From Elusimicrobiota bacterium (lineage in GTDB: Bacteria > Elusimicrobiota > Elusimicrobia > UBA1565 > UBA9628), in the NCBI GenBank assembly GCA_028868375.1, contig JAGWUP010000002.1:193015-257014 (forward strand): 64,000 bases of DNA, given 5' to 3'. Position numbers and translations under genes: made by a program. Of the stretch, positions 18,619 to 42,405 are shown piece by piece (the first letter of the stretch is position 1; each line of letters opens with the position of its first letter). The notes under the pieces were generated by a model. It was given only the letters and a program-made list of their open reading frames with translations, was not told where the DNA came from and made no database searches.

Positions 18619-21213
18619 GGGCTGTAACGGGGTTGGCAGTCCCAGCTCTTGGCGAACGATGTCCTCGATGGCGGAACGCAGCTCGGGATTTTCCGCGGGC
18701 AGCAGGCGCTCCACGACCAGGGGATAGATCGCCTCGAGAAGCTCGCGGGAGGGATTGGCGATGAAATCCAGAGTCTGCTTGCGGCGCTCCTCCATCGGCA
18801 GCGGGGAGTCTGGTTTAAAGAAAGCTCCGAAGTCGCCGGCCGAGCGGCCGCGGCCGTCGGCGGTGACGAAGGCGTTCTCGCTATGGGCGTCTGTCATGTT
18901 GTCCCGGCTGCCGCTCCAGCCCGTCATGTGGGCCAGCATCATCGCCGCGGCGTTGCCGGCCAGGACGGTCGGCGCGGCCAGGTCCAGCGGCAAGGGCAGC
19001 CAGTCAACAAGTTTGCCGGTGTTTCTCAAGCGCTTGCCGTCCTCGTAGCGAAAGATCATCAGGCCCAGGGGATTGGATCTCGTAAAACGACGGAGGCGTC
19101 CGTAGAGGCGCAGAGTGCCCGTCCATTGCCCGAAAAAGAGGGGCTCGGGAGCCAGGCCGGGGCCCTCGCCCTGCGGGGCGTTTAGGAGCTCTTGGGCGAC
19201 TTCGAAGTGGGCCGGACTGATCCAGTCGCGGCCTTTCTCCTGGCCCGGCATCTTCAGCTCGACGGCGTAGCCGCCGGCGCCGGCCAATTGCATCCTGCGG
19301 AAGCTTTCGCTGACGGGATTGACCAGCAGCTTGCCGAGGGCGTATTGAAAGCCCTTGCGCTCGGACCAAGCCATCGTCGGCAGCGCGGAGGCGTTGGCGA
19401 GATTGTAGGGAACGGCCATGCGCAGGAAGCTCAGGGCGGTCAGGAAGACGGAGAGCCTGGCGCCGTGGCCCAAGATCAATGAGAGCTGGGGCAGTTGCCG
19501 CCACATTTGATCCTTCGCCCCGTGGCCCCAACGCTTCCGGCCCAGGGGTTTGAGCCCGCCGGAGCCGTTGGCCGAGGAGAGCAGGCGAGCAAGCCGTCCC
19601 CAGAGGGCGACCAGCGCCGAATTGACCCCCGCCCAATCCACTCCGAGGCTGACGGCCAGGCGCTTCAGCTCCTGCTCCGAGCCTTCCAGCACGATTCGCG
19701 CCAACCCGTCTAGGGCTTCGGAGCGCGCCTGCTCATCGACTTGCGGGACCATGGCCTGTAGCCGCAGCGACGGCAGCCAGATCTTGTGGATTTCCCCGGA
19801 TTGGCCAGGGACGGAATGGGCCAGATGGAGCCGGCCGGCCGGCTCCATGCCTAGGGCCACGGCCGGCTTGTCGCTGGCGAAGACCAGGCTCTTCTCCTCG
19901 CCGTCGCGGGGATCGACGAGCAACAATTTGTTGCCGGAAACGGCGATCAGCCTGCCGTCCGGGGAGAAGCCCAGCGGCCCGTAGCCGGACAGCGGCGCGG
20001 CCCTTTGGTAAATCCTCCGGCCGCTCTGTACGTCCCACAGGGAGAGAAGGCTCTTGCCGTTGTCATCGCTGGACAGCACCGCCAGGCGCCTGCCGTCGGC
20101 GGAGAAGACGGCATGGGTGGGCGACCACCAGTCGGAGCCATTTCTGTCAAACCCGGTTCTGAAAATCTGCCGGCCGTCCGCGTCATGGACGGCCAGGGTC
20201 TTCGAGTTCCAGTGGCTGGTGACGAGCGCGCGGCCGTCCGGGGAGATGGCCAGCGGGAAGCCGGGCAGGCTGCTTTGGCCCAGCAGTCTGCCGCCGGCGA
20301 GCTCCCAGGAGGCCAGGACGCTGTTGTCGTCGCTGTCGTAGGCGGCCAGCAGGCGGCCGTCGCCAGAAAAGCGCATGGCCATGGCGTCTTGAAAGCCCAT
20401 CACGCCCAACGTAGGCTCGGCAAGCCAGCGGATGGGGCCGCCGGGATTGTCGAGGTCGAGCAGCCCGACCTGGGAGGCCTCGTTGGACAGGGCCATCAGG
20501 ACGCCGTCCTCGCTGAACGCTCCGTTGCCGATCGCTGCCTCCTCGCCCGTCAGGTCGCGGAGAATCTTGTTCGACCTCGTGTCCCAGAGGGCGGTCCGTT
20601 CCTTGGACATCTCCAGCAGCAGCGAGCCGTCGGGCGAGAGGATGGTGCGCCCGCCGCCGCCGGACTTCGCGTCGATGAACGAGTCACTAGCTTCCCAGTG
20701 ATCCGCCAGCAGGGCGTCGAGCAGCGCGCCCTCGTGGGCCCGGCGCAGGTGGGCGAGGAAGGAGCGGATCAGGCGGGGCGCCTTGAGCGCCGATTGAGGG
20801 GCAAAGCCCAGGGCCCGCGCCTGCCCCCTGGTCAGCCGCGAGGCGGCGGCTCCGGACGTCAGCTCCCGGTGCAGAAGAAACTGGACCAGCTTGTCCTCGA
20901 CCCCGCGCCGCTGCAGGCGGGCGAATTTCTCCAGCTTCGCGTAGTCGCCGGGCTCGAGAGACGGGGCCCGGCTCAGAGTGATCCCCTGCTCCGCGATGGC
21001 GCCGGCGGCGGCGTCGAGATGGTAGCTCTGGACCTCGCTTAGGGCCGGCGGCAGGCTGGGGGCGACGGCCTCGGGCTGGGCCATCGCCTCCGGTTGGGCC
21101 AGCGCCGAGGACGGCGCCAGGCTTGCCAGAGCCAGGAAGCAGCAGAGAAGCAAGCGCGTCAGCACTGGAATATGATAGCGGCCGCTCAACGCGCGCGAGC
21201 GCCGGCTACTCAT
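18613..21213 (-). CDS. Secreted beta-propeller (WD40/TolB-like) repeat protein, 866 aa, with a C-terminal domain of unknown function
   Basis: Signal peptide (LLLCCFLALASLAPSSALA). Multiple SPDG/SxDG blade motifs (ILSPDGSLLL, AISPDGRALV, VFSADGRRLAV, GFSPDGRLIAV). The ~300-aa C-terminus has no recognisable motif. Confidence 0.6.
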   Translation of the reverse strand: MSSRRSRALSGRYHIPVLTRLLLCCFLALASLAPSSALAQPEAMAQPEAVAPSLPPALSEVQSYHLDAAAGAIAEQGITLSRAPSLEPGDYAKLEKFARLQRRGVEDKLVQFLLHRELTSGAAASRLTRGQARALGFAPQSALKAPRLIRSFLAHLRRAHEGALLDALLADHWEASDSFIDAKSGGGGRTILSPDGSLLLEMSKERTALWDTRSNKILRDLTGEEAAIGNGAFSEDGVLMALSNEASQVGLLDLDNPGGPIRWLAEPTLGVMGFQDAMAMRFSGDGRLLAAYDSDDNSVLASWELAGGRLLGQSSLPGFPLAISPDGRALVTSHWNSKTLAVHDADGRQIFRTGFDRNGSDWWSPTHAVFSADGRRLAVLSSDDNGKSLLSLWDVQSGRRIYQRAAPLSGYGPLGFSPDGRLIAVSGNKLLLVDPRDGEEKSLVFASDKPAVALGMEPAGRLHLAHSVPGQSGEIHKIWLPSLRLQAMVPQVDEQARSEALDGLARIVLEGSEQELKRLAVSLGVDWAGVNSALVALWGRLARLLSSANGSGGLKPLGRKRWGHGAKDQMWRQLPQLSLILGHGARLSVFLTALSFLRMAVPYNLANASALPTMAWSERKGFQYALGKLLVNPVSESFRRMQLAGAGGYAVELKMPGQEKGRDWISPAHFEVAQELLNAPQGEGPGLAPEPLFFGQWTGTLRLYGRLRRFTRSNPLGLMIFRYEDGKRLRNTGKLVDWLPLPLDLAAPTVLAGNAAAMMLAHMTGWSGSRDNMTDAHSENAFVTADGRGRSAGDFGAFFKPDSPLPMEERRKQTLDFIANPSRELLEAIYPLVVERLLPAENPELRSAIEDIVRQELGLPTPLQPE
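21178..21211. repeat. 34-bp perfect direct repeat, copy 2
   Basis: Identical to 18585..18618. It contains the TAG stop of the kinase gene and, in another frame, the first 11 codons (MSSRRSRALSG) of the beta-propeller gene. Confidence 0.9.
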
Positions 21214-23560
21214 GGGCCCTTGGTTTTGCGGCGGCTGAGCTTGCGTCTTTGTAGCCGTCGAAATGCAGGCGCTTCAGGATGTCCACAGCCGACTCTTTTA
21301 GCCTTCCCGTTTTGTGGGTGGCTATTCCCGTCAGCGTTTCAGGGCCGCCCGCTTCGGTGAAGAGCCGTTTTAATTCGCTCTCCGCCTGCTGCGGGCCGGC
21401 GCCGCCGCCGGCGATTTCCCGATGGATATCCCGCAGTATTCCGTCGAGAGCCTCCAACGCTTTCTCCCGGGTTCCGTTGTTCAGCTCGTCGTCCTGGGCG
21501 CGCTGGATTTGATGGGCCAGGCCCAGCAGCCATATGTGCCGCCGCGGGAGATCCTCCTTCGCCATGAGATACTTCAGCCAGCGAAAGAACGTCTCGTAGT
21601 CGTCGCCGTGGCCGCGCCAGGCCTGCAGGCCGGCCTCGAGGATCAGCGGCGAAAGCGGCGTTGCTCCCGGCTCCAAGCCTTCTTTGAGCTGCTCCGAGCG
21701 TCGCACCATCATCAGGACAAGCGTTTGGTAGACCGCTTTCGCGGCTTCCGGGTGCCAGGTCGTGAACTCGGCCAGCAGCAGCAGGTCGTCGAGGGTTTGC
21801 GGCGTGATCTCGCGGTGCCGGTAGAGGGAAATATAGTTGGCGAGCGCCGGGATGGGCGTGGTTCCATAGTCGGAGAGGAGCTTGTTGACGATGAAGCATA
21901 AGAGTTCGCGCAGCGAGGAGGCTTGCTGATCGTCGATCGTATGGCCGTGGCCCCAGAATGCGATCGCGGCCAGACTTTCTCTGTATACGGCGTCCAAGCC
22001 GTCAACGCGTTCCGGCTGTTTTGGAAGGCCCAGGTAGAAGTCCGCCATCTCGGCGCTAGTGCCGGGGTCCATCAGAGACTCAAGCCCTGATTTTCCGCGT
22101 CGCCGCATCCCCCAACGCCGCAGGGGCGCCAAATAGTTGGGCGCGGCCAGACCGGCCGACGTAGTTGTCAGGGCAAGACCATCGAAGAGAAATTTTAGAA
22201 GAGATGTAGATGATGGATCAACGTAACCCGAGAATAAGCAGCCCATCCAGACAACCACCCCGACAGCAGCACCGAGTCCAGCTTTACCACCTGATGTCCA
22301 ATGCATTTCGGAGGCCTTCTCCCGAAGTAGCGGCTTTCGTCGCGTGGCCGCTGGATTCTTTATGAACCCAAGCTGAATTGGACTCCCTAGAGCTGCCTGC
22401 GGCAAAATCGCAGTCCGCTCCAACGCTCGCTTGAACTCGCCGGCCGATTGAAAGCGCAGCTCGGGGCCAAGCCGCGTCGCTTTTTCGATGGCGGCTTGAA
22501 CCGCCGGGGAGACGCCGCGCATCGCCTTGGCGTCCGGCCTGCCAAACTGCGGCGGCGGCTCCAGTCCGGTCACCATCGTATACAGCAGCCAGCCCGCGCT
22601 ATAGACGTCGCTTCTTGCGTCGGTCTGGCTCTTGCCCCATTGCTCCGGCGCCGCGAAGCCCGGGGTGCCCAGCGCCACCGTGTCTGACTTCTGCCCGGGC
22701 TTTAATTTCCTGCCGGCCCCGAAATCGATCAGCTTAGCTCCGGACTCGCTTAAGATCACGTTGCCGGGCTTGAGGTCGCGATAGATCACGCCCACGCCTT
22801 TCCGGTGCATCGCTTCCAGGGTATCGAGCAGCGCGCTGATCACGCCGACGGCCTCGCCCTCGCCCATCCTGCCCCGATTAAGCCGCTGCTCCAGCGTCTG
22901 GCCGGGGAAATACTCTTCGACCAAGTACGGCGGCTCGTGCGATTGCTCGTATGCCCTGGGTTCCGGGATGTTGGGAACACCGGCTCGATTTAACTTTTGC
23001 AGCAACAGAAATTCGCCGCGAAGGGCGGCGCCGGCGTCTTCGGGGCTTATGCCGTTGCCAGTGTTGCCGAGGGCGAGCTTCAATGCATGGCTGCCGCCAT
23101 CGGGACCGTGGACCTTTAAGACGGTGGACATTCCGCCCGCGCCCAACAACTCGTCAACGACGAATTCTCCTATGCTATCGCCAGGCCGCGGGACCGCGCC
23201 ATGCCAATGAGAGACCTCCCCATCGACCAACCGCCGGACTTCCCTTGCGGGAGCGTCGGGGGATGGCCTCGCTGCTTGGAGGCGCGCCGAGCCTACGGCC
23301 GCGGGGAGAGCGGCCGGCGCCGGCGCCGGCAGCCCGGCTGCCGGCGTATAAGATAACGGCGCGGGCGGGAAAGGGACGCCGGGGCGATCGACGGCGCTGT
23401 CTTGCAAGCCCGGCATCCGTCCCGGCACGGAGACGATCGGCGCGTAGAGCGCGGCCGGGATCACGGGGCCTTCTTCCTCGATCGCGGCCAGCGCGGCCTG
23501 CGGCCAGATCAAGGCTAGGCAGAGGGCGGCGGCCAGCAGGCGGCGCAAGGAGGCCAGCAT
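21206..23560 (-). CDS. Hanks-type Ser/Thr protein kinase with N-terminal signal peptide, an internal TM segment and a large C-terminal domain
   Basis: Signal-peptide-like start (LLAAALCLALIWPQAALAA). Kinase motifs: GxGxxS-like (ELLGAGGMSTV), VAIK-like (HALKLAL), HRD (IYRDLKPGNVIL), DFG (LIDFGAGR) and APE (GTPGFAAPE). A hydrophobic TM segment follows (AGLGAAVGVVVWMGCLFSGYV), and then ~330 aa of uncharacterised domain. Confidence 0.8.
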   Translation of the reverse strand: MLASLRRLLAAALCLALIWPQAALAAIEEEGPVIPAALYAPIVSVPGRMPGLQDSAVDRPGVPFPPAPLSYTPAAGLPAPAPAALPAAVGSARLQAARPSPDAPAREVRRLVDGEVSHWHGAVPRPGDSIGEFVVDELLGAGGMSTVLKVHGPDGGSHALKLALGNTGNGISPEDAGAALRGEFLLLQKLNRAGVPNIPEPRAYEQSHEPPYLVEEYFPGQTLEQRLNRGRMGEGEAVGVISALLDTLEAMHRKGVGVIYRDLKPGNVILSESGAKLIDFGAGRKLKPGQKSDTVALGTPGFAAPEQWGKSQTDARSDVYSAGWLLYTMVTGLEPPPQFGRPDAKAMRGVSPAVQAAIEKATRLGPELRFQSAGEFKRALERTAILPQAALGSPIQLGFIKNPAATRRKPLLREKASEMHWTSGGKAGLGAAVGVVVWMGCLFSGYVDPSSTSLLKFLFDGLALTTTSAGLAAPNYLAPLRRWGMRRRGKSGLESLMDPGTSAEMADFYLGLPKQPERVDGLDAVYRESLAAIAFWGHGHTIDDQQASSLRELLCFIVNKLLSDYGTTPIPALANYISLYRHREITPQTLDDLLLLAEFTTWHPEAAKAVYQTLVLMMVRRSEQLKEGLEPGATPLSPLILEAGLQAWRGHGDDYETFFRWLKYLMAKEDLPRRHIWLLGLAHQIQRAQDDELNNGTREKALEALDGILRDIHREIAGGGAGPQQAESELKRLFTEAGGPETLTGIATHKTGRLKESAVDILKRLHFDGYKDASSAAAKPRAHE

Positions 23561-23629
23561 TTATTTAGTGTAGGCGAAGCCCGCCGCGATGTCATGGGCC
23601 GCAGGGCCCAGCGGCCTTAGGCCTTGGTC

Positions 23630-24259
23630 CTAGGACTTCGGGGGCTTGGCGACGGAGCTCGGGCGGGGCAATTCGAAGGCGTCGCCGGTGCGCGCGTACC
23701 AGGAGCCCTCCATGCGGCCGATGGCCTTGAGGTCCTGGTGGCGCGGCTGGCCGCCGTTCCAGAGGGCGTCGGCGATCGACAGATGGACGACCTTGCCGAT
23801 CACCAGATTCCCGGCCAGGGGGCCTTCGCCGATGGTGACGACCCGCAGCAGTTGGCACTCCATCTGCGCCGGCGATTCCTTGACGCGGGGGGGCCTGACC
23901 TTGACGCTGGGCAGCGGGGTCAGCCCGACCTTCTCGAACTCGCTGACCCCGTAGGGGTAGTCGGCGGAGCTTTGGTTGATCGCCGCGGCGTTGGCCTCGG
24001 TGGCGAGGTTGACGACGAATTGCCCGGTGGCGCGCGCGTTGACCAGGCTGTCCTTCTCCCTGCCGTCCCTGTTGTTGACCGGCGCGAAGCAAACGCTCAT
24101 CGGCTTGGCGGTGATCCCGGTAAAAAAGGAGAAGGGGGCGAGATTAGGAACGCCGTCGGGCGAGATGGTCGACACCCAGGCGATCGGGCGCGGCACGATC
24201 AGCGAGATCATCACCGCGTAGCGCTCGCGCAGCTCCAGCGCCTCGGGGTCAAGCTCCAT
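23630..24259 (-). CDS. Flavin reductase-like (FMN-binding split-barrel) domain protein
   Basis: The N-terminal region (VMISLIVPRPIAWVSTISPDGVPNLAPFSFF) is the typical flavin reductase like-domain signature. Confidence 0.7.
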   Translation of the reverse strand: MELDPEALELRERYAVMISLIVPRPIAWVSTISPDGVPNLAPFSFFTGITAKPMSVCFAPVNNRDGREKDSLVNARATGQFVVNLATEANAAAINQSSADYPYGVSEFEKVGLTPLPSVKVRPPRVKESPAQMECQLLRVVTIGEGPLAGNLVIGKVVHLSIADALWNGGQPRHQDLKAIGRMEGSWYARTGDAFELPRPSSVAKPPKS

Positions 24260-25529
24260 GGCGCCTCTTGGACCAGGAGAGCGGATAGCCGCCGTCGGCG
24301 ATCTTGAGGCCCTGGCCGGTGATTTGCAGGCTCTCGAAGAAGGTGTCGAGCATCACCGCCAGCTCCCGGGACATCTTGCCGCGCGCCTTAAGCGAGCGCT
24401 TGGCGGCCTCGCCCTGCGGGCTGTGCGGCAGGCCGGAGGGATGGAAGGTGATCGAGCCCGGCTCGATGACGCCTCTGCGCGCGCCGTAGTTCGCGTTGGA
24501 GAAGAACATCACCTCGTCGCAGTCGACGTTCTGGTGGGCGTAGGGGGCCGGCACGTTCGCGGGATGCCAGCCCTCGATCTGCGGGCGGAAGGTGCAGACG
24601 GCGAAGCCGTTGCGCGGGGCCTCGCCCGACTGGAAGGTCTGGCGCGTCGGCGGGGCGGTGTGGATCTCGCGCGAGATCGAGTGCTGGTCGGCGCTGTCGA
24701 AGGAGAAGGGATAAAGCGCCCCCTGCCAGCCGGCCAGGTCGAAGGGGTGGTGGCCCAGGGTCAGCCGGGTGACCCTGCCGCCGCCGTGCTTGACGAGCAC
24801 GGTGAAGCGCCCGGCCTCATCGCGCGCCGGGGGCAGCTGCGGCAGACCGATCTCGGTCTCCACGACCGGCGCCATCAGCGTCGCCTGCCCCTGGGCGTTG
24901 AGGTAATGGGGGGCGAAATGGATCGGCTGCAGCGACTCCACGATCAGGAAGAAGGCCGGCCCCTTGGCAAGCCGCCAGCGCGTCGTCGTGCCCTTGGGCA
25001 CGAGCAGGTAGAGGCCGGGGCGGAAGGGCAGGACGCCGTACTCCGTCTCCAGGCTGCCCCGGCCCTGCTGGACGAACAAGAGCTCGTGGGCCTCGCCGTT
25101 GCGGAAGAACTCGCCGGCGGGCGTGGAGCGGTCGGGGCGAGAGACGGAAATCGTCGTCGCGGGGCCGGCCAGCAGCGGGCGGCGCGCGCGCCAGAAATCG
25201 CCGCCGGCGGCCAGCCTGGCCGTCCTCAGATGGAAGGGCTGCAGCGGCAACTCCTGGGTCGGCTCCGCTCGCAGGTCGAAATCGGCCAGCCGCGGCGGCG
25301 CCACCTGCTCGGTGGGATAGCGCCGCAGGTGCATCTTGCGCGAATAGGCCCCGGAGAAGCCGTAGACGCCGTGGATCTCCTCCAGCGCCAGCAGTCCCGG
25401 CTTGGCGTGGAACTCGGTGTGGGGGACCTTCGGCACCTTGCCGCGCGTCGCGATCACCGCCATCGCGGCAGTATAGCTATTTTGCCGGTACCTCAAGCTG
25501 CCTCCGGTCTGCCCCGGCTGTGCTGCCAT
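24249..25529 (-). CDS. hmgA: Homogentisate 1,2-dioxygenase
   Basis: Length of 426 aa. Conserved HGD cupin regions (HELLFVQQGRGSLETEYGVLPF; NGFAVCTFRPQIEGWHPA; DEVMFFSNANYG...ITFHPSGLPHSP). It is adjacent to fah. Confidence 0.85.
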   Translation of the reverse strand: MAAQPGQTGGSLRYRQNSYTAAMAVIATRGKVPKVPHTEFHAKPGLLALEEIHGVYGFSGAYSRKMHLRRYPTEQVAPPRLADFDLRAEPTQELPLQPFHLRTARLAAGGDFWRARRPLLAGPATTISVSRPDRSTPAGEFFRNGEAHELLFVQQGRGSLETEYGVLPFRPGLYLLVPKGTTTRWRLAKGPAFFLIVESLQPIHFAPHYLNAQGQATLMAPVVETEIGLPQLPPARDEAGRFTVLVKHGGGRVTRLTLGHHPFDLAGWQGALYPFSFDSADQHSISREIHTAPPTRQTFQSGEAPRNGFAVCTFRPQIEGWHPANVPAPYAHQNVDCDEVMFFSNANYGARRGVIEPGSITFHPSGLPHSPQGEAAKRSLKARGKMSRELAVMLDTFFESLQITGQGLKIADGGYPLSWSKRRHGA

Positions 25530-25950
25530 GATTTCGCCGGTGAAAAGCCGACACGGTCGGGGCTTCAGCTAAGAAGCGCTGAGGTGGGTGACGGCGAGGA
25601 ATGCGGCGAGCGAGCACTGAGGACCTGCGTCACGATAATATGGTTATTTTGGACGGACGATTTTGGAGCGAGCCGAGGAGTGAGGAGCGAGCATAGCGAT
25701 CGCTATGTGAGCGACGAACGACGAAGGCGCAGCCCAAAATCGTCCGTCCCCTTCAGGGCGACCCGATTCCGGTCGATTTCATCGTTGCTCCTCGGTCACA
25801 TGGCCTGCGGCCATGCTCCCTCCTCGCGTCTTGAAATCGCCACGGACTCGGGTCGCCAAAATGACCATATTATCGTGACGCAGGTCCTTTGGGGCGCAGC
25901 GAAGCCGCGTCTGGAGCCGTCAGGACCCGCCGCAGCGCTTCTTAGCTGAG
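25520..25950. mobile_element. MITE-like palindromic element, family copy A (about 430 bp), between the fah stop and the hmgA start
   Basis: Nested inverted repeats: cagctaagaagcgctg (25566-81) pairs with cagcgcttcttagctg (25932-47); ggacctgcgtcacgataatatggt (25621-44) pairs with accatattatcgtgacgcaggtcc (25864-87); ggacggacgattttgg pairs with ccaaaatcgtccgtcc. The centre reads gagcatagcgatcgctatgtgagcgacgaacgacg. Related copies lie at 31000-31465 and 29037-29330. Confidence 0.55.
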
Positions 25951-25952
25951 GA

Positions 25953-26966
25953 TCAGTGGGGCCCGGAGTAGAGCAGCCGCCGCTGGGCTTTCGGCGCGCC
26001 GACGACCTGGCGCAGGGTGCCCAGTCGCTCGACCGTCAGCTCCAGGACGTCGCCGGGCTTGACCCAGCGCTCGAGATCGAGGCCGCAGCCCTTGTAGTAG
26101 GTGCCGCTGCCCAAGAGGTCGCCGGGATAGACCGTCTCCTCCTGCGAGACGTGCGAGAGCATCAAGGGAAAGCTCCAGCGGCGGCCCGTGGAGCTGGACT
26201 CGCTCCAGGGCTCCCCGTTGACCTTCAGGGTCATCTTAAGCCCCTCCGGCTCGGGCAATTCGTCGGCGGTCAGAAGGTAAGGGCCAAGCCCCGTGGCGAA
26301 GTCCTTGCCCTTGGCCGGGCCCATCCGGCAGACCATCTCGCTCTTCTGGATGTCGCGCGCCGAAAAATCGTTCAAGATCGTGTAGCCGGCGATGTGGCGC
26401 GCCGCCTGCTCGACGGAGAGGTCCCTGCCCTTCTTGCCGACGACGCAGCCGATCTCGAACTCGAAGTCGAAGCGGCGCGTGTAGCTGGGCCAGGGGACGG
26501 TGTCGCCGGGGCCGTAGATCTCGCGGTGGTTTCCTTTATAATAGACCGGCTGGTCGTACCACTGCGGCGCCAGCGGCTCGCCCCGGCGCTTGGCGCCCTG
26601 CAGGGCGTGCTCCTCGAAGGCGAAGAAATCGCGCAACGCCCTCGGGCGCGGCAAGGGGGCCAAGAGGCGCGCCTCGTCTTCCTTGTAAACCAGCCGCTCC
26701 CCGCGACTTCCCGCTTCAAGCCTTCCCCGGCGGACGTCCTCCAGCGCCTCGCGCGCCGCCTCGAGGGCCTCGCTTCCACCGTCCAGGAAGGCCAGCATCT
26801 CCGCCGGAAGCAGGGCGTCGGCCAGGCGCCGGGGCGCGGCCTTGCCCTGGGCGGCCAGGCGGGCGGCGCAGGCGAAGTTGAGGTCGACCATCCCGCCTTC
26901 AAGAAGGGCGCCCAGGCGCTCGAAGGGTCCCAAGGGCGTGCTGACCTCGAAGGTGACCAGCTTCAT
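25953..26966 (-). CDS. Fumarylacetoacetate hydrolase (FAH) family protein
   Basis: The FAH-fold C-terminal domain shows conserved acidic/metal-binding stretches (FAFEEHAL, GNHREIYGPGD, FDFEFEIGCVVGKKGRD, GYTILNDFSARDIQ). Confidence 0.8.
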   Translation of the reverse strand: MKLVTFEVSTPLGPFERLGALLEGGMVDLNFACAARLAAQGKAAPRRLADALLPAEMLAFLDGGSEALEAAREALEDVRRGRLEAGSRGERLVYKEDEARLLAPLPRPRALRDFFAFEEHALQGAKRRGEPLAPQWYDQPVYYKGNHREIYGPGDTVPWPSYTRRFDFEFEIGCVVGKKGRDLSVEQAARHIAGYTILNDFSARDIQKSEMVCRMGPAKGKDFATGLGPYLLTADELPEPEGLKMTLKVNGEPWSESSSTGRRWSFPLMLSHVSQEETVYPGDLLGSGTYYKGCGLDLERWVKPGDVLELTVERLGTLRQVVGAPKAQRRLLYSGPH

Positions 26967-27013
26967 GCCCCGCGATTATAGAATTACTTGCGGGCCGCGG
27001 CCAGGCCGCTCTG

Positions 27014-27751
27014 TTGCAAAGGGAGGCGGTCATGGATTACGAGCGCCGGCGCTCGAGCAGCCTGGACAAGGCGCTGGCCTCCTTTCCGTTCTCGAGGCTG
27101 CCGGAGGGGGAGATCCGACGGCTTCGCTCGGCCTTGCGCCCGGAGCGCTTTGGCGCCGGCGAGACGATCTTTCGCGAGGGAGAGCCGGCGGGCGGCTTTT
27201 GGGCTGTGCTGGAGGGGACGGTCCGCATCGTCGGCTTGTGCGGCGGCATGCGCCCCGTCGCTCTCGAGCGCCTGGGGCCGGGGCAGCTCTTCGGCCTTTA
27301 TTGCCGCGCCGGCGGCGGCGGCGAGTATCCTTGCACGGCCCTGGCCGAGCGGGAGGTCCTGGCGGCCCGAGTGCCGGATTCCGCCTACCAGCGCTGGCTC
27401 GGCGCCTATCCGGAGTTCGCGCGCGGCATCGTCGCGGCCTGCGCCGGACGGCTGGCGCGCATGAGGCGAGCCGCCGTCTCCGGGCGGGAGGGGGTCGAGC
27501 CGCGGCTGGCGCGCGCCCTGCTCTTGCGCTCGCGCGCGGACGGAGCGGTGGTGCGCATGACCAGGCGGGAGCTGGCCGGCGAGGTGGGCAGCGCCGTCGA
27601 GACGGTTTTCCGGGTGCTGGCGCGCTGGCGCCGGCGGGGGTGGCTTGCGACCGGACGCGGCCAAGTGCTGATCAAGAAGCCGGAGAAGCTGGCCCACGCG
27701 GCATGCCGCTATGATCGAGGTCATGGCGGCTCTTCGGGGACTTGCCTATAG
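27014..27751 (+). CDS. Crp/Fnr-family transcriptional regulator (cNMP-binding domain plus C-terminal HTH)
   Basis: A cNMP-binding beta-roll (GETIFREGEPAGGFWAVLEGTVRI) and a C-terminal HTH (MTRRELAGEVGSAVETVFRVLARW). The true start may be the ATG at 27032 (MDYERRR). Confidence 0.7.
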   Translation: MQREAVMDYERRRSSSLDKALASFPFSRLPEGEIRRLRSALRPERFGAGETIFREGEPAGGFWAVLEGTVRIVGLCGGMRPVALERLGPGQLFGLYCRAGGGGEYPCTALAEREVLAARVPDSAYQRWLGAYPEFARGIVAACAGRLARMRRAAVSGREGVEPRLARALLLRSRADGAVVRMTRRELAGEVGSAVETVFRVLARWRRRGWLATGRGQVLIKKPEKLAHAACRYDRGHGGSSGTCL

Positions 27752-28826
27752 TGAAAAGATGGCGGAAGATGCGGCGGCGCCATGCCGGCAGCGCGGCCTC
27801 GACGTCCTCTTCGGCAGGGCCTTGGCCCAGGCCCCCGACGGTTTTTGCGTCTCGCGCTCCGGGGTCTTGATCTACGCCAATCGGGCGGCCCAGAGGCTGC
27901 TCGGCTCTCCCGCCGAGCGGCTTTACGGCGGGCGGCTTCGCGAGGCGTTGTGCGCGCGGCTGGACTCCTTGGAATGCGCCGGCGAATGCCCGCTGCAGGC
28001 AGGCGACGGCGAGCGTCACGCGACGGCGTCGCGCGGGAAAGCCCCTGGCGGCGCGCTTGGCCGCGCAGGCCGGCGGGCGCTCAAGGTGCGCTGCCTAAGC
28101 CTCGAGGCCGAGGGGGACGGGCCCGGCCAGAAGCCCTGGACCCTGACCCTCATCGAGGAGACGAGCAAGGATGCCGAGAGGGAGCGGCGCAAGCGGTTGT
28201 GGCGCGGCGCGATCGCCGTGGATCTGCGCTCTCCCCTGAGCGCCGTCGCCTCGGCCCTGCGCCTGGCCGGCTCGCGGGAAAGCGAGGCCGCTTGCCGGCG
28301 CCTCCTGGCCGCGCTGAGCTTTTATCTGGACATCGGCGCCCTGCGGGCCGGAGCGCTGCCCCTGCGCCCGGAGGCGGTCGATCTACTCTTGGCCGCGCGC
28401 CGCTGCGTCTTGGCTTGCTCCGCCTGCGCCGCGCAGAAGGGCGTCGAGATCGGGCTGTCGGGAGAAGCGGGGCTGTCGGCCAGGGCCGATTCCGGGCTGC
28501 TTGCGCGCGTGATCGGCGGCTTGCTCGACAACGCCATTCGCTTTGCGCCCGCGGCGGGGACGGTCCGCCTCTCGGCGGGCCCCGCGCCCGGCTCGCGCGT
28601 GGCCTTGCGGGTGATCAACGAGGGGCGCGGCATGCCCTCCGGGGAGCTGGCCCGCATCTTCGAGCCCTGCGAGCGGGTGCCGCCGGCCCGCGTCGAGCGC
28701 TGGCGCAGCACCGGCCTGGCGTTGACGTTCTGCCGCGAGGCGGTCGGCCGGATGGGCGGCGAGGTGCTCGTCGAGTCCACGCCCGGCAGCCGGACGGCGT
28801 TCACGGTGCTGCTGCCGGCGGCCTGA
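27711..28826 (+). CDS. Sensor histidine kinase (PAS-like N-terminal region, degenerate HisKA, HATPase_c)
   Basis: A PAS-like region (FCVSRSGVLIYANRAAQRLLG). HATPase_c N/G-box regions (LLDNAIRFAPAAGTVRL; INEGRGMPSGELARIFEP; STGLALTFCREAV). The start is uncertain; an alternative ATG at 27759 avoids overlap with the Crp gene. Confidence 0.6.
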   Translation: MIEVMAALRGLAYSEKMAEDAAAPCRQRGLDVLFGRALAQAPDGFCVSRSGVLIYANRAAQRLLGSPAERLYGGRLREALCARLDSLECAGECPLQAGDGERHATASRGKAPGGALGRAGRRALKVRCLSLEAEGDGPGQKPWTLTLIEETSKDAERERRKRLWRGAIAVDLRSPLSAVASALRLAGSRESEAACRRLLAALSFYLDIGALRAGALPLRPEAVDLLLAARRCVLACSACAAQKGVEIGLSGEAGLSARADSGLLARVIGGLLDNAIRFAPAAGTVRLSAGPAPGSRVALRVINEGRGMPSGELARIFEPCERVPPARVERWRSTGLALTFCREAVGRMGGEVLVESTPGSRTAFTVLLPAA

Positions 28827-28860
28827 GCCGGCCGCTTCGTTGCAACAGATTCAAGAGCCA

Positions 28861-29030
28861 TGAACCTGTGCGTGGAGTGCCGCTGGTGCGAGTTGAGCGA
28901 GGATAAGCGCGGGCGTCTGCGCTACGTCTGCCGGCGCGAGGATGGGCGGGCGTTGGGCTGGGACGTCATACGCAAGAAGGCTTGTCCGAGCTTCTCGCAT
29001 CAGCTTCCCTCGGCGGTCTGGGGAGCCTAG
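28861..29030 (+). CDS. Possible small Cys-rich protein (56 aa, C-x2-C ... C ... C)
   Basis: An unannotated short ORF reading MNLCVECRWCELSEDKRGRLRYVCRREDGRALGWDVIRKKACPSF... There is no homology assessment. Confidence 0.25.
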
Positions 29031-29036
29031 CGGCTC

Positions 29037-29330
29037 CTAGTGTAGTGAATCATAAATCCCTTTGCATTTGGAGGCCCAATCCCGAGACGATTTCCAGGAG
29101 CGACGACCGAGAATAGCCGCAGCTATTTGAGGGAGAAGCGACGCAGAAATGGGCCGGGATTGGGCCTCCCCTGACTCTGAAGTCTTGATTGGGGAGGGGC
29201 AGCGCCATTTCGCCCGCCTGGCTTCGTTGCTCGTCGCTTGCATAGCTTAGGCTATGCGCGCTCCTCGCGCCTCGCCAGGCGCCAAACTGGCGCTGCCAAA
29301 TGCAAAGGGATTTATGATTCACTACACTAG
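29037..29330. mobile_element. MITE-like element (294 bp) with perfect 35-bp terminal inverted repeats
   Basis: The TIR ctagtgtagtgaatcataaatccctttgcatttgg (29037-71) pairs with ccaaatgcaaagggatttatgattcactacactag (29296-29330). The interior shares the family core (cgttgctcgtcgcttgcatagcttaggctatgcgcgctcctcgc, compared with cgtcgttcgtcgctcgcata... in the other copies). Confidence 0.6.
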
Positions 29331-30967
29331 AGCGAGCGCGACAGGAGGATCAGGGCCGCGCCGGCGAGAAGGACCAGCCACCACCAGGAAGGCCGCGGCT
29401 TGGCGGCCAAACCGCGCAGCCACAGCCACCAGGCTTGCCAGCGCGGCTGGTCGCGGTTGAACCGCCCCGGCGGGGGAGGCGTGCCGTGCTCGACGGCGGC
29501 GGGCAGGGCCCGAACCTGCTTGGGCGACAGGCCCATCTGGGAAGCCAGCGCCATGACCTGCTGGCGCTCCGCCATCGTCAGCTCGCGCCCGCTCATGCCG
29601 AGCATCCGCGCCACTTTTTCCTCGACGGCGGACATCGCGGGCGAGGCGTTCTGCGGCAGTTGATCCAGGGCGTCGGCGATCTGGGGGCCATCCGTGGAGC
29701 CGTCGTTGGAGGCGTCCTTGAGCATCTTCTGGATGTCGGCCAGCTCCTTTTTTTCCTCGTCGGTCAGCTCGTCGGAGCCGTTGTCCTGCTCGCCGCCCTG
29801 TGAGGCCTGTCCCGACTGCGCCGAGCCCTGAGCGCCGTGCAATCCCCCCGGCGCCAGATCCGTTCCCCCGGAGTCCTCGCCGGGCTGCGGCGCCATGCCG
29901 GAGGCGGTTCCGGCCGCGCCCGAGACCGCCGCCCCCGAGTAGGCGCCTCCTGCTGCGGCCCGGCCGGCGGGGGTCGCTGCGCCGGAAGCGTAGCCGCCTC
30001 GGCCTGCGGCATAGCGCTTGGCGCCGCGGCCGGCCGGAGAATAGCCCGTTGCCGAGGATGTTCTTGCTCCTCCGGGCATGGAGCCGTGGCCGCCGGCGCG
30101 GCGGCTGCCGCCGTTAAGCGCCCGGAAGGCCGCCGCTCCCGCGTTGGGGCCGGCCAGATTGTCCTGCTTCAAGCCGAAGCCGCGCTTGGCCTGATCGGCC
30201 GCCTCTCCGCCGAGAGCGGCTCCCTCGCCTCCGCCGGCCGGATGGCCGCTGACGCTGTCTCCGCCGCCGCCGGAATCGGTGGAGCCGCCCCCGTCGCTCG
30301 AGCCTCCCTCGTCCGCCGAGCCGCCCGCATCGGAGGGGGCGCCGGAGCCTCCCGTCCTCCCTGCGGCCGGAGTTCCGCCGGGCGAGACGGTCCGGTTGGC
30401 GGCCGGGGCCTTGTCCTTGGCGGCCGGAGGGGGAGCGGTTTCCGGCGGCCCGTTTTGTTGGCGGTCTAGGTAGGCCCTGGCGGCGCGGAGATTCCCCAGG
30501 TTTCTGTTGGCGATGTCATTCAGGTCGCCTGCATTAAAATTTTTGGCGCCGACCAGGGCATCCACGATGTTTTTCCTCTCTAAGCTGTCGGGCGGCAACG
30601 GCTTGGGCAGGGCCTGGGCCAGGTTAGGATATTGCGTGGCCAAGAGTTGGTATGTCTTGTTGTCTTGCGCGATCTGCTTCGGGGTGAGCGGCTGGTCGAA
30701 TGCTGCCGGTGGCGCGGGCTCGCCCGCTAGCTCATGCAGGAGCAGGTTGGTGACGGCCAGGCGGCGGTAGGTCAGCTCGTCGCCTGTAAGTAGAACCTGG
30801 TTTCCATCGGCATCGGTCCGGCTCTCGTAGAGGCCGCTGTCGTACTGGGGCAGGAATTGCTTGATTTCCGCCAGGAGCTTCTGTTGGGTGTCCGTCTCCG
30901 CCGCATGGGCCGAGGCGCCCAGCAAGGCGACCAAAAGCAGCGCCGCGCGCATGAGGATCCGCGTCAC
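29327..30967 (-). CDS. Secreted low-complexity Gly/Ser/Ala-rich protein with a C-terminal hydrophobic anchor (546 aa)
   Basis: Signal peptide (MRAALLLVALLGASAHA), an ordered N-terminal ~190 aa, then a long GGS/GSA-rich tract and a C-terminal W-rich TM segment (WQAWWLWLRGLAAKPRPSWWWLVLLAGAALILL). Confidence 0.5.
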   Translation of the reverse strand: MTRILMRAALLLVALLGASAHAAETDTQQKLLAEIKQFLPQYDSGLYESRTDADGNQVLLTGDELTYRRLAVTNLLLHELAGEPAPPAAFDQPLTPKQIAQDNKTYQLLATQYPNLAQALPKPLPPDSLERKNIVDALVGAKNFNAGDLNDIANRNLGNLRAARAYLDRQQNGPPETAPPPAAKDKAPAANRTVSPGGTPAAGRTGGSGAPSDAGGSADEGGSSDGGGSTDSGGGGDSVSGHPAGGGEGAALGGEAADQAKRGFGLKQDNLAGPNAGAAAFRALNGGSRRAGGHGSMPGGARTSSATGYSPAGRGAKRYAAGRGGYASGAATPAGRAAAGGAYSGAAVSGAAGTASGMAPQPGEDSGGTDLAPGGLHGAQGSAQSGQASQGGEQDNGSDELTDEEKKELADIQKMLKDASNDGSTDGPQIADALDQLPQNASPAMSAVEEKVARMLGMSGRELTMAERQQVMALASQMGLSPKQVRALPAAVEHGTPPPPGRFNRDQPRWQAWWLWLRGLAAKPRPSWWWLVLLAGAALILLSRSL

Positions 30968-30999
30968 AAGTTGAGTGTAGCGGCCTGGCGGGGAAATTC

Positions 31000-31465
31000 A
31001 AGCCCCGTCCATCTTCCCGATCCTCGGCTAAGAAGCGCAGGCGGCGGGTCCTGATGGCTGCGGACGCGGCTTCGCTGCGCCCCCGTAGGACCTGTGACAC
31101 GATTATATAGACGATTTGGAGGCATGAGCTTGAGGCGATTTCGAGGCGCGAGGAGGGAGCATGGCGATCGCCATGTGACCGACGAGCAACGAAGAAATCG
31201 ACCAAGATCATGCCTCTGCCCTACGCCCGGGCGATTTTGGGCTGCGCCTGCGTCGTTCGTCGCTCGCATACCGCTGCGGGTATGCTCGCTCCTCGCTCCT
31301 TGGCTCGCTCCAAAATCGCCTCGGCCAAATCGTCTATATAATCGCGTCACAGGTCCTCAGTGCTCGCTCGCCGCGTTCCTCGCCATCACCCACCGCAGCG
31401 CTTCTTCGCTGAAGCTCTGGCCGCGTCGACTTTTCACCGGTGAGGCGAGATCATGGCAGCGCAAT
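31000..31465. mobile_element. MITE-like palindromic element, family copy B (inverted relative to copy A), carrying a duplicated hmgA 5' fragment at its right end
   Basis: The terminal repeat cggctaagaagcgc (31025-38) pairs with gcgcttcttcgctgaag (31398-31414). Inner repeat: ggacctgtgacacgattatatagacgatttgg pairs with ccaaatcgtctatataatcgcgtcacaggtcc. The centre reads gcatggcgatcgccatgtgaccgacgagcaacg. The right flank cttttcaccggtgaggcgagatcATGGCAGCGCAATCGGGGCAG resembles the hmgA start region (ATGGCAGCACAGCCGGGGCAG at 25529) and is followed by a stop after 11 codons. Confidence 0.55.
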
Positions 31466-31488
31466 CGGGGCAGATCGACGGCATTTAG
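31453..31488 (+). pseudogene. Duplicated hmgA start fragment (MAAQSGQIDGI*)
   Basis: The first 7 codons match the hmgA N-terminus MAAQPGQ at 18 of 21 nt, and ~25 nt of upstream sequence is also shared (cttttcaccgg...atcATGGCAGC). Confidence 0.5.
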
Positions 31489-31504
31489 GGCGTCTTAATC
31501 AATA

Positions 31505-31568
31505 AGTGACACACTTCGCTGGGACGATTTTGGAGCGAGCCAAGGTGCGGCGAGCGACGCAGGTCCTT
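31505..31568. repeat. Fragment of the same MITE-like family
   Basis: gacgattttggagcgagccaaggtgcggcgagcgacgcaggtcc resembles the inner arm of copy A (gacgattttggagcgagccgaggagtgaggagcgagc ... ggacctgcgtc). Confidence 0.3.
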
Positions 31569-32385
31569 AGAGGCAGGAGCGCGCGGCCAGATGCGTCGGG
31601 TTGAGGTTCTCGGAGGCGTTGATCGGAGACCAGTAGATGCTCCCGCCGCCGCCGTCGCCGGCCGAAAACCCCGCGGCGCCGCCTCCGTCGAAGAGCACCG
31701 CGTCGGTGGCGCCGAGCCGGCGCATGAGCGCCGCCATCCCGGCCAGGGTGGCCCCGCGCGGCCTGAGGATGTCCCCGCTCAGGATCGACTGGGCCGACTG
31801 CGGCGCGCTGACGATCAGCAATTGCTGGCGGCCGTCGACCGTCCGCAGTCCCACGGCGGTGCGCGCGGCGGGGCGCGAAAGCATGTCCGGAGAAAAGCTT
31901 TCTCCGGGAGTCGAGCCCCGCGGCAGGTTGTCGGCGCTAAGGTCCTTGCCGTCGAGCAGAAGAATCGCTCCGCCGCCCAGATAAAGATCCATCGTCTCGA
32001 TCGCCTCGTCGTCGCGCGCGATCGCCAGAGTGCCTTTGCCGCGCAGCCGTCCCAGCGCCCAACGCCGGCCCAGGTCGACGACCCGGCCGTCGCCGGGGCG
32101 GAGGACTCGGTAGCGGGGATGGTACTCTCTTCCGTCGGAGGCCAGCACGTCGCCCATGGGCTGTCCTTGCCCGAAATAGGTGCCGTTGACGACGACTGTT
32201 CCCAGGCCGCGCGCTCGCCAGAAGCGCATCGGCTCATAGGAGACGATCAAATTGTCGGAGGGACGCTCGATGACGGCGAGAGCGTAATCCACGCCCCTGT
32301 CGTAGGCCTTTTCCCAGCACCGTTGGGGGCCTATGTCCGCGCGCGCCGCCAGCGCCCACGCCGCCGCCGCCATCCACTCGATCAT
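31567..32385 (-). CDS. Hypothetical protein, possibly phosphodiester glycosidase (DUF2233/NAGPA-like) family
   Basis: NGTYFGQG ... GGGAILLLDGKDL ... DGRQQLLIVSAPQS ... AVLFDGGGAAGF resembles the NAGPA-domain pattern (NGGFF...GGPxLLxDG...DGGGS). The assignment is by pattern only. Confidence 0.4.
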   Translation of the reverse strand: MIEWMAAAAWALAARADIGPQRCWEKAYDRGVDYALAVIERPSDNLIVSYEPMRFWRARGLGTVVVNGTYFGQGQPMGDVLASDGREYHPRYRVLRPGDGRVVDLGRRWALGRLRGKGTLAIARDDEAIETMDLYLGGGAILLLDGKDLSADNLPRGSTPGESFSPDMLSRPAARTAVGLRTVDGRQQLLIVSAPQSAQSILSGDILRPRGATLAGMAALMRRLGATDAVLFDGGGAAGFSAGDGGGGSIYWSPINASENLNPTHLAARSCL

Positions 32386-42235: not shown

Positions 42236-42265
42236 CTGACGGCGCCTAACATCCGTCCGGGACGG

Positions 42266-42322
42266 CTCGTCGTTTATCGTCCGCCGGGCCCTCAGACGCC
42301 CCGTCAGACGATAAACGACGCG
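42266..42322. terminator. Bidirectional hairpin between convergent genes
   Basis: cgtcgtttatcgtc (42268-81) ... gacgataaacgacg (42309-22) form a 14-bp perfect inverted repeat with a GC-rich loop. It lies between the GT-C gene stop and the hybrid kinase stop. Confidence 0.45.
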
Positions 42323-42405
42323 CCGGTCTGTCCCGGTTCTGCTGTCACGGGTTCACCCGCCAGCGAAAAGTCGACGCCTTCCATGCGGCCGAGGATCGGG
42401 GCAGG

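Follow-up and report, generated by a model that had tools for sequence, protein, structure and literature searches.

A probable mosaic intergenic repeat with nested G·A-rich hairpins between FAH and hmgA in an Elusimicrobiota genome

The extragenic repeats known as REPs, BIMEs and REPINs are the closest described systems to the elements reported here. A REP is recognized as an imperfect palindrome of 30-40 nt with a conserved GTAG 5' of its foot, and BIMEs are mosaics in which palindromic units are joined to non-palindromic linker and flank motifs in varying combinations (PMC3333891). REPINs are extragenic inverted doublets that form hairpins in single-stranded DNA or mRNA and in which compensatory changes are common, and what is excised is an asymmetric entity bearing a 5' tail (PMC3116915). 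Here we examine 64,000 nucleotides from an Elusimicrobiota bacterium (assembly GCA_028868375.1, contig JAGWUP010000002.1, positions 193,015 to 257,014; hereafter the window, to which all coordinates refer), in which one palindromic element, copy A, lies between a FAA-hydrolase gene (FAH) and the homogentisate-pathway gene hmgA, and a second, copy B, lies some 5 kb away in inverted orientation. We interpret A and B, with a probability of roughly 0.78, as two diverged copies (~80% identical) of a non-coding mosaic intergenic repeat of ~460 bp, in which a short repeat, R, is interrupted by a palindrome, P.

Like REPs and REPINs, the window elements are non-coding and extragenic, consist of inverted unit pairs for which long hairpins are predicted and whose stems covary through compensatory changes, and lack target duplications. 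Like BIMEs, they are mosaic: the tail and terminus that make up R occur with P in A and B and without P at 42321-42402, and a core without the tail is found in a third element, copy C, and at one metagenome locus, L192. The differences are also substantial. The window unit measures ~112 nt rather than 30-40 nt, the architecture is Y-shaped and nested, and the conserved part is a G·A-rich core of ~60 nt at the tip instead of a GTAG foot; the foot-flanking columns are not conserved among 89 aligned units, and of the four outer-stem arms that A and B have between them, only one is preceded by GTAG. REPs go with a cognate RAYT (TnpA-REP; Y1 HUH) transposase gene, which REPs usually flank; no RAYT gene is present among the genes annotated between 15953 and 49698. 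Because of these differences in unit length, foot, conserved part and RAYT, we draw the comparison by analogy and do not claim membership.

Bacterial miniature inverted-repeat transposable elements (MITEs), such as Correia/NEMIS, ERIC/IRU, RUP and Nezha, are non-coding, intergenic, palindromic elements of 100-450 bp that can part co-transcribed genes and supply expression signals. The window elements are likewise small, non-coding, intergenic and palindromic. MITEs, however, share conserved terminal inverted repeats and target duplications, whereas the terminal (outer) stems of A/B and C are wholly different and it is the internal core that is conserved. No flanking direct repeats were seen at 25499/25957, 31016/31483 or 29037/29330, the ends of A, B and C; one possible CTTAG repeat occurs, at metagenome locus L090 only. 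A long stem carrying two internal hairpins is also the architecture of the inverted terminal repeats of parvoviruses such as adeno-associated virus and of the telomeres of Streptomyces linear replicons, which function as single-stranded DNA and whose tips are stabilized by sheared purine-purine pairs. This likeness is architectural only: those structures serve replication at the ends of linear replicons, while the window elements are intrachromosomal and multicopy and have much larger arms.

The block shared by copies A and B, and a solo copy of R

An initial annotation of this DNA had noticed that the sequence to the right of the copy B palindrome resembles that before hmgA. The resemblance is present and far beyond chance. 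Block B (31019-31483) aligns with the reverse complement of 25499-25954 at 80.4% identity over 469 columns (E=9e-117; blastn, and MAFFT of the reverse complement of 25440-26000 against 30960-31560), and the limits of similarity lie at 31016-31483 in B and 25957-25499 in A, outside which identity is ~32% on both sides. As the initial annotation had expected of this alignment, the similarity extends beyond the palindrome: past the outermost inverted repeat, 31421-31483 and 25556-25499 are identical in 49 of 63 columns (78%), and the 63-nt tail of A as sole query retrieves the tail of B from the window at E=2.4e-9 (blastn). Identity is even throughout (73-89%, tail included), at 84.5% in the left outer layer, 79% and 73% in the outer-stem arms, 75.5% and 83% in the hairpin units and 89% in the right outer layer. 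The tail itself (tested in copy B) has no significant fold (z=-0.15). The features of the block, and of the solo copy described below, are as follows.

25499-25957, minus strand: copy A, composite repeat; fills the FAH-hmgA spacer, and relatives lack it
31016-31483, plus strand: copy B, composite repeat, R split by P; inverted homologue of copy A
25499-25556, minus strand: tail of copy A; holds the ATG (25527-25529) of the longest open reading frame (ORF)
31421-31483, plus strand: non-palindromic tail of B, earlier taken for hmgA upstream sequence and start; 78% identical to 25556-25499
31453-31488, plus strand: fortuitous 11-codon ORF (MAAQSGQIDGI, then stop) in the tail of B; frame not kept among the three tail copies
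42321-42402, plus strand: solo R (tail and CCGAGGATCGGG terminus) without the palindrome; found by hidden Markov model (HMM), blastn and pattern search; contiguous in two other assemblies

The solo copy first showed up at 42323-42375, as a weak blastn match to the A region. An HMM trained on only the tails of A and B then gave 42321-42377 at E=1.5e-6, the next match being at E=1.5; blastn with the tails alone gave E values of 2e-5 to 5e-5, and a 16-nt tail pattern has three matches in the window against 0.32 expected. In addition, CCGAGGATCGGG follows the solo tail by 12 nt. Exactly this sequence, reverse-complemented, forms the opposite terminus of B (31016-31028), the corresponding terminus of A comes close to it, and the 13-nt exact match, at 42389-42401, stands at the expected distance. 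When the three tails are aligned, the solo copy shares its base with A at some of the variable sites and with B at other such sites. Indels of 5 nt and 1 nt, which are not multiples of three, separate the tails, and thus no ATG-led reading frame is conserved among them. The 11-codon ORF in the tail of B, whose counterpart in A begins MAAQPGQTGGS, is therefore fortuitous.

Judging from these alignments, R would consist of an unstructured tail of 57-63 nt, a spacer of ~12 nt and the CCGAGGATCGGG terminus, and the stretch 42321-42402 looks like the A/B block minus its 385-nt palindrome. The two genes that flank it, and whose 3' ends converge on it, are a PMT_2-family (glycosyltransferase-like) gene and a response-regulator/histidine-kinase gene. 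Within R, A and B are 78% identical to each other and 72-74% identical to the solo copy, and P is ~80% identical between A and B; this equal divergence of R and P in A and B, with the solo R further off, agrees with P having entered an R copy once and the two having then been copied as one block. Adjoining the solo copy, at 42258-42325 (unstranded), is a simple hairpin with an AT-containing stem (z=-4.65), also between the convergent genes. Possible integron attC-like R boxes at this hairpin and at L090 were checked by eye and were not convincing.

The palindrome and its hairpin unit

P is a nested structure of 385 nt, with an outermost inverted repeat of 23-25 nt, a 33-bp outer stem that has an AT-rich patch inside and is 97% complementary, and two internal hairpins, each of ~100 nt. 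On the strand as read, purines dominate the first hairpin and pyrimidines the second, and the two are thus convergent copies of a single unit of ~112 nt. Either strand of P is predicted to fold into the same Y shape (z -15.5 and -14.6). The parts of P in copy B, together with the related elements nearby, are listed below; unit scores are from a covariance model (CM) of the unit.

31016-31038, unstranded: left terminus of copy B and outermost inverted-repeat arm, CCCGATCCTCGGCTAAGAAGCGC; pairs with 31398-31420
31398-31420, unstranded: right outermost inverted-repeat arm of B; 23 nt, 78% complementary
31087-31119, unstranded: left arm of the 33-bp, AT-containing outer stem of B; 97% complementary
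31325-31357, unstranded: right arm of the outer stem of B; partner of 31087-31119
31112-31223, plus strand: hairpin unit U1, a predicted G·A-rich rod with its purine-rich strand on plus; CM R1 116.7 bits
31219-31331, minus strand: hairpin unit U2, a G·A-rich rod with its purine-rich strand on minus; CM R1 101 bits
29037-29330, unstranded: copy C, a perfect 35-bp outer stem and two convergent units; architecture as in A and B, without outer layers and tail
31512-31566, plus strand: degenerate fragment F, a unit start joined to an outer-stem end; weak CM match at 31512-31593, E=0.1

The outer-stem arms of A and B differ at seven and nine positions, and each copy is still complementary at 32 of 33; the seven differences in the left arm of B are all mirrored in its partner. 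As these differences are compensated, the arms appear to evolve together, whether because pairing is under selection or because one arm is corrected from the other. The outer and hairpin stems of copy C are unrelated in sequence to those of A and B, while the unit cores are conserved, and across the six units of the window compensatory double changes occur at 20 of 30 predicted pairs. The core is predicted to form a rod in which G-C pairs alternate with possible tandem G·A/A·G pairs (5'-CGAG/5'-CGAG), with a tip helix (CAUASC...GSUAUG), and the rod can form only on the purine-rich strand.

Apart from these six units and the weak fragment at 31512-31593, the CM found nothing in the window. Three full elements and one degenerate fragment thus lie within 6 kb, and one of the elements splits a tightly coupled gene pair, which bears out the view of the initial annotation that such elements have remodelled this locus. 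Fragment F abuts the stop codon of a phosphodiester-glycosidase (NAGPA-like) gene. The whole interval between the tail of B and that codon (31484-31566) is a patchwork of degenerate element pieces, and GATTAAGACGCC, beside the tail of B, resembles GATAAACGACGC, an arm of the 42258-42325 hairpin beside the solo tail. Next to copy C, a cysteine-rich ORF of 56 aa (MNLCVECRWCELSEDKRGRLRYVCRRED..., 28861-29031), annotated publicly as a gene, ends 5 nt before the element.

Outside the window, the hairpin family is abundant in soil and groundwater metagenomes. A degenerate 22-nt pattern for the 5' strand of the core matched at least 120 metagenome contigs, with many of the matches at contig ends, and the CM gave 129 matches at E<1e-3 in the pattern-matched loci. 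In 89 units aligned to the model, pairing holds in 92.6% of cells and both sides have changed in 27 of 30 pairs; the covariation score is 0.543, against 0.139 for shuffled alignments (a value this high in 0 of 500) and <0.1 when partners are slid. The 3' strand of the core lies outside the search pattern, and conservation there is 88% or more at most positions. GC content across the contigs is 46-76%. Plus/minus doublets account for 13 of 75 elements overall and for every one of the three in the window. An additional stem, roughly 27-42 nt long, underlies 10 of the 13 and about one in three singles. The element most closely related to the A/B core, at L192, is 72% identical and has the outer stem and both units without the outer layers and tail. 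No recurrent neighbour protein such as a transposase emerged, the largest cluster covering 11 of 121 loci and several ORFs of the top clusters overlapping hairpin units. In a viral collection, one contig (IMGVR_UViG_3300031576_000466) has the core pattern near its end (616-637 of the locus), with no CM match at E<1e-3 there; a distant blastn search of a plasmid collection gave no match. A literature search with the core sequence found no paper, and one on Elusimicrobia and palindromic repeats found nothing relevant.

These observations lead us to a mechanism for the window copies. P may have entered a copy of R once, after which R and P would have been copied as a block to give A and B. By analogy with REPINs, the family may have spread as non-autonomous DNA through a single-stranded hairpin, using a factor encoded elsewhere, and the stem arms would be kept complementary by selection or by correction of one arm from the other. 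More tentatively, and with less than even confidence, the hairpin may represent an undescribed, widespread class of structured single-stranded DNA or RNA with a trans-acting partner of its own, which builds nested Y-shaped elements, inserts into or is carried by short host repeats like R, spreads across lineages of 46-76% GC, splits operons and breaks short-read assemblies.

Several points weigh against the interpretation of A and B as copies of one mosaic repeat. First, the 64-kb window holds only three copies of the tail, of which the solo copy is just 72-74% identical to the others; that copy fits both a loss of P and an R that never had P. Second, neither target-site duplications nor conserved terminal repeats were found, nor a candidate transposase among the genes annotated at 15953-49698, so that mobility is a matter of deduction. 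Third, copying of R and P as a block would formally be a small segmental duplication, which the data also allow. Fourth, the alignment of the 89 units was fitted to the CM, and the pairing counts are somewhat inflated as a result. Finally, a bridge of 109 nt within copy B (31195-31303) is present only in the window's own assembly.

The best-surviving alternative concerns the hairpin units rather than the block. The units might primarily be structured RNAs, acting as intercistronic or 3'-untranslated-region stabilizers, as processing or protein-binding sites, or as convergently transcribed small RNAs, and their multiplicity would then reflect recruitment. Strong covariation would suit such a role, as would the strand-specific purine-rich core, which pairs only through G·A on one strand; the window copies are all intergenic, one of them between convergent genes, and RNA-level action is also known for REP elements. 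Several findings speak against it. A consensus scan of 25300-31700 found no intrinsic terminator (a G+C-rich hairpin followed by a T run) at any element, and at the Rfam gathering score the window has only a tRNA, with nothing overlapping the elements (25400-31700) up to E=10; the family is absent from Rfam. Single units (loci L086-L205), taken with the purine-rich strand as plus, have no sense-strand preference downstream of genes: their 5'-side neighbours are antisense in 18 cases and sense in 6, and the 3' side has no bias, although orientations came from a codon-position GC test and are crude. Moreover, the family is missing from 1.2 Mb of relatives' hmgA loci and yet present in contigs of 46-76% GC, a patchiness that spread as DNA explains better. 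A primarily RNA-level function is therefore possible but doubtful, and an RNA-level role could coexist with mobility.

The start of hmgA and its junction with FAH

The genes flanking copy A are the following.

24249-25463, minus strand: hmgA-like dioxygenase, comparative start Met23, 404 aa; supported by orthologue N-termini, a public 404-aa call and the Pfam domains HgmA_N/HgmA_C
25953-26966, minus strand: FAA-hydrolase (FAH) gene; its stop codon lies within the copy A terminus

The longest ORF for hmgA encodes 426 aa and starts within the tail of copy A. With this product as query, the protein match begins at residue 22-23 in most of 80 related loci, the best match being 72% identical and found among related Elusimicrobiota metagenome-assembled genomes; with the 404-aa version, orthologue alignments begin at residue 1. 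The N-termini of the close orthologues all read M[AS][LV]I..RG.VP..PHTEF, which corresponds to Met23 of the window (MAVIATRGKVPKVPHTEF; ATG at 25461-25463). Public annotation of identical DNA (JAGWKZ010000007.1, GCA_028865065.1) calls a 404-aa gene, and an exact look-up of the 426-aa product found no record. On this comparison, which draws on about 40 orthologues and the public annotation, the real start of hmgA appears to be Met23. The ATG at 25527-25529 would be simply the longest-ORF start, which falls in the tail because the tail of copy A has an ATG in frame with hmgA and 22 stop-free codons, and no gene sequence would have been duplicated.

The junction upstream of Met23 differs from that of relatives. 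In about 40 of these, FAH, hmgA and a flavin-reductase gene form a tight operon, in which FAH and hmgA are 2-30 nt apart or overlap (ATGA) and an AGGAG Shine-Dalgarno (SD) site precedes the ATG by 6-9 nt. The window spacer is 489 nt, and since the gap in relatives is so short, the whole of it is best read as inserted DNA that holds, by this comparison, no ancestral hmgA upstream sequence. Consistent with this interpretation, the window FAH is conserved through ...LLYS and then reads GPH and a stop. Neither elements nor hairpin units were found in the relatives' hmgA loci by blastn or CM search (1.2 Mb), and the tail HMM found no tail in those loci or in the metagenome loci. The insertion would have taken hmgA from its ancestral SD site and its coupling to FAH, and hmgA may now rely on signals in the inserted DNA.

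Two further observations concern this junction. The tail is separated from the Met23 ATG by 35 nt (25464-25498), in which there are a short AT-rich palindrome, GGCAAAATAGCTATACTGCC, and, 6 nt ahead of the ATG, a TATACT box; the last bases of the copy A tail are GGAGG, placed 4 nt ahead of an in-frame TTG (25494-25496). It is possible that these are replacement signals for hmgA expression after loss of the ancestral SD site.

A second alternative builds on such signals and takes the tail to be a functional cis element (an outward promoter, SD site or leader) that drives hmgA, so that its conservation would reflect function beyond shared ancestry. In its favour, the insertion would have cut hmgA off from its ancestral SD site and from the overlap with FAH, and the GGAGG with its TTG and the TATACT box are candidate signals. 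Against this, a consensus scan found no sigma-70-like promoter there, GGAGG is present only in copy A, and the TATACT box lies outside the shared sequence; furthermore, the tail in B and at 42321-42402 faces the 3' ends of convergent genes, where it has no target. We consider this explanation unlikely.

The initial annotation had proposed instead that segmental duplication or recombination carried true hmgA sequence, both upstream and 5' coding, along with the palindrome and so produced a pseudo-start at B, and had argued from this against clean transposition. The 63 nt common to A and B past the palindrome do include an ATG, and the first seven codons are identical at 18 of 21 bases. The shared stretch nevertheless ends at 25499, 36 nt before the Met23 ATG, and because it lies entirely upstream of the conserved start it is not hmgA: it overlaps none of the parent coding sequence, is not ancestral upstream of hmgA in relatives, which have no such region, recurs in a third copy between unrelated genes, and has indels that are not multiples of three. 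The duplication of a gene start is thus very unlikely. What stands of the argument against clean transposition is that the copied unit exceeds the palindrome, with an asymmetric, unstructured arm of 63 nt; the copying of adjacent hmgA does not.

The same region has varied in other ways among relatives. A 665-nt FAH-hmgA gap in one locus (L014; 71% HmgA identity) was considered as an element and rejected: it holds an extra nitroreductase-like gene of 198 aa between FAH and hmgA (1240-1900 of the locus), which indicates that this junction has been opened more than once in this group. In addition, HmgA homologues ~60% identical to that of the window are encoded on contigs labelled Thermoplasmata or Methanobacteriota archaeon (L032, L035, L037, L041, L046, L050 and L055), where an FAH-like gene lies downstream of hmgA and is only ~35% identical; these could reflect horizontal transfer or mis-binning.

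Continuity of the assembly and significance of the repeat

Contigs of three independent short-read assemblies (GCA_028865065.1, GCA_028870695.1 and Logan SRR32006850) end inside the palindromic elements. In GCA_028865065.1, JAGWKZ010000007.1 starts at window position 31194 and JAGWKZ010000016.1 ends at 31304, both inside B, and other assemblies break at 25809, 25882, 29064, 29185 and 31516. These breaks, together with the 109-nt bridge found in one assembly, would be expected if copy B, or its junction with the tail, were a chimeric join of contig ends stopping in a repeat, a concern that the initial annotation had raised. Independent contigs largely answer it, the exception being the bridge. 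Window 15953-31194 is identical to JAGWKZ010000007.1, which spans copies A and C whole, and the tail is joined to the right arm of B (31304-31488) in JAGWKZ010000016.1. The two outer-stem arms of B sit on these two different contigs, are complementary at 32 of 33 positions and share B-specific compensated changes relative to A; in both hairpin units, stem pairing spans the break points; and the bridge is 83% identical to copy A, in keeping with the remainder of the block. Together, the independent contigs, the compensated arms and the pairing across breaks make a chimera the least probable of the explanations considered here, and long hairpins or repeats that assemble poorly are the more probable cause of the breaks. 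A composite transposon, or an inversion of the 5-kb A-B segment, was rejected, as an inversion would not duplicate the flanks and FAH is native to the hmgA operon.

Elsewhere in the window, a 34-nt exact direct repeat, GCGGCCGCTCAACGCGCGCGAGCGCCGGCTACTC, G+C-rich and partly palindromic, occurs at 18585-18618 and 21178-21211. Each copy takes in the stop codon of a minus-strand gene and the 28 nt that follow it; the two genes encode an 850-aa WD40 protein and a 784-aa kinase, and the repeat may be another small repeat or a shared terminator.

Taken as a duplicated gene start, the similarity between A and B is ordinary; the points that deserve attention are the unannotated family of G·A-rod hairpins and the split between FAH and hmgA. 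A longest-ORF start inside inserted repeat DNA produced both a false gene start and a false pseudogene, an error that comparative start calls avoid. The hairpin family is worth adding to repeat and RNA libraries, and a model of it would help to explain and close gaps in metagenome-assembled genomes. For the organism itself, the repeat has split a conserved, translationally coupled gene pair of the homogentisate pathway, the ancestral ribosome-binding site is gone, and the apparent dependence of hmgA expression on repeat-borne sequence offers a testable case of a repeat rewiring an operon.

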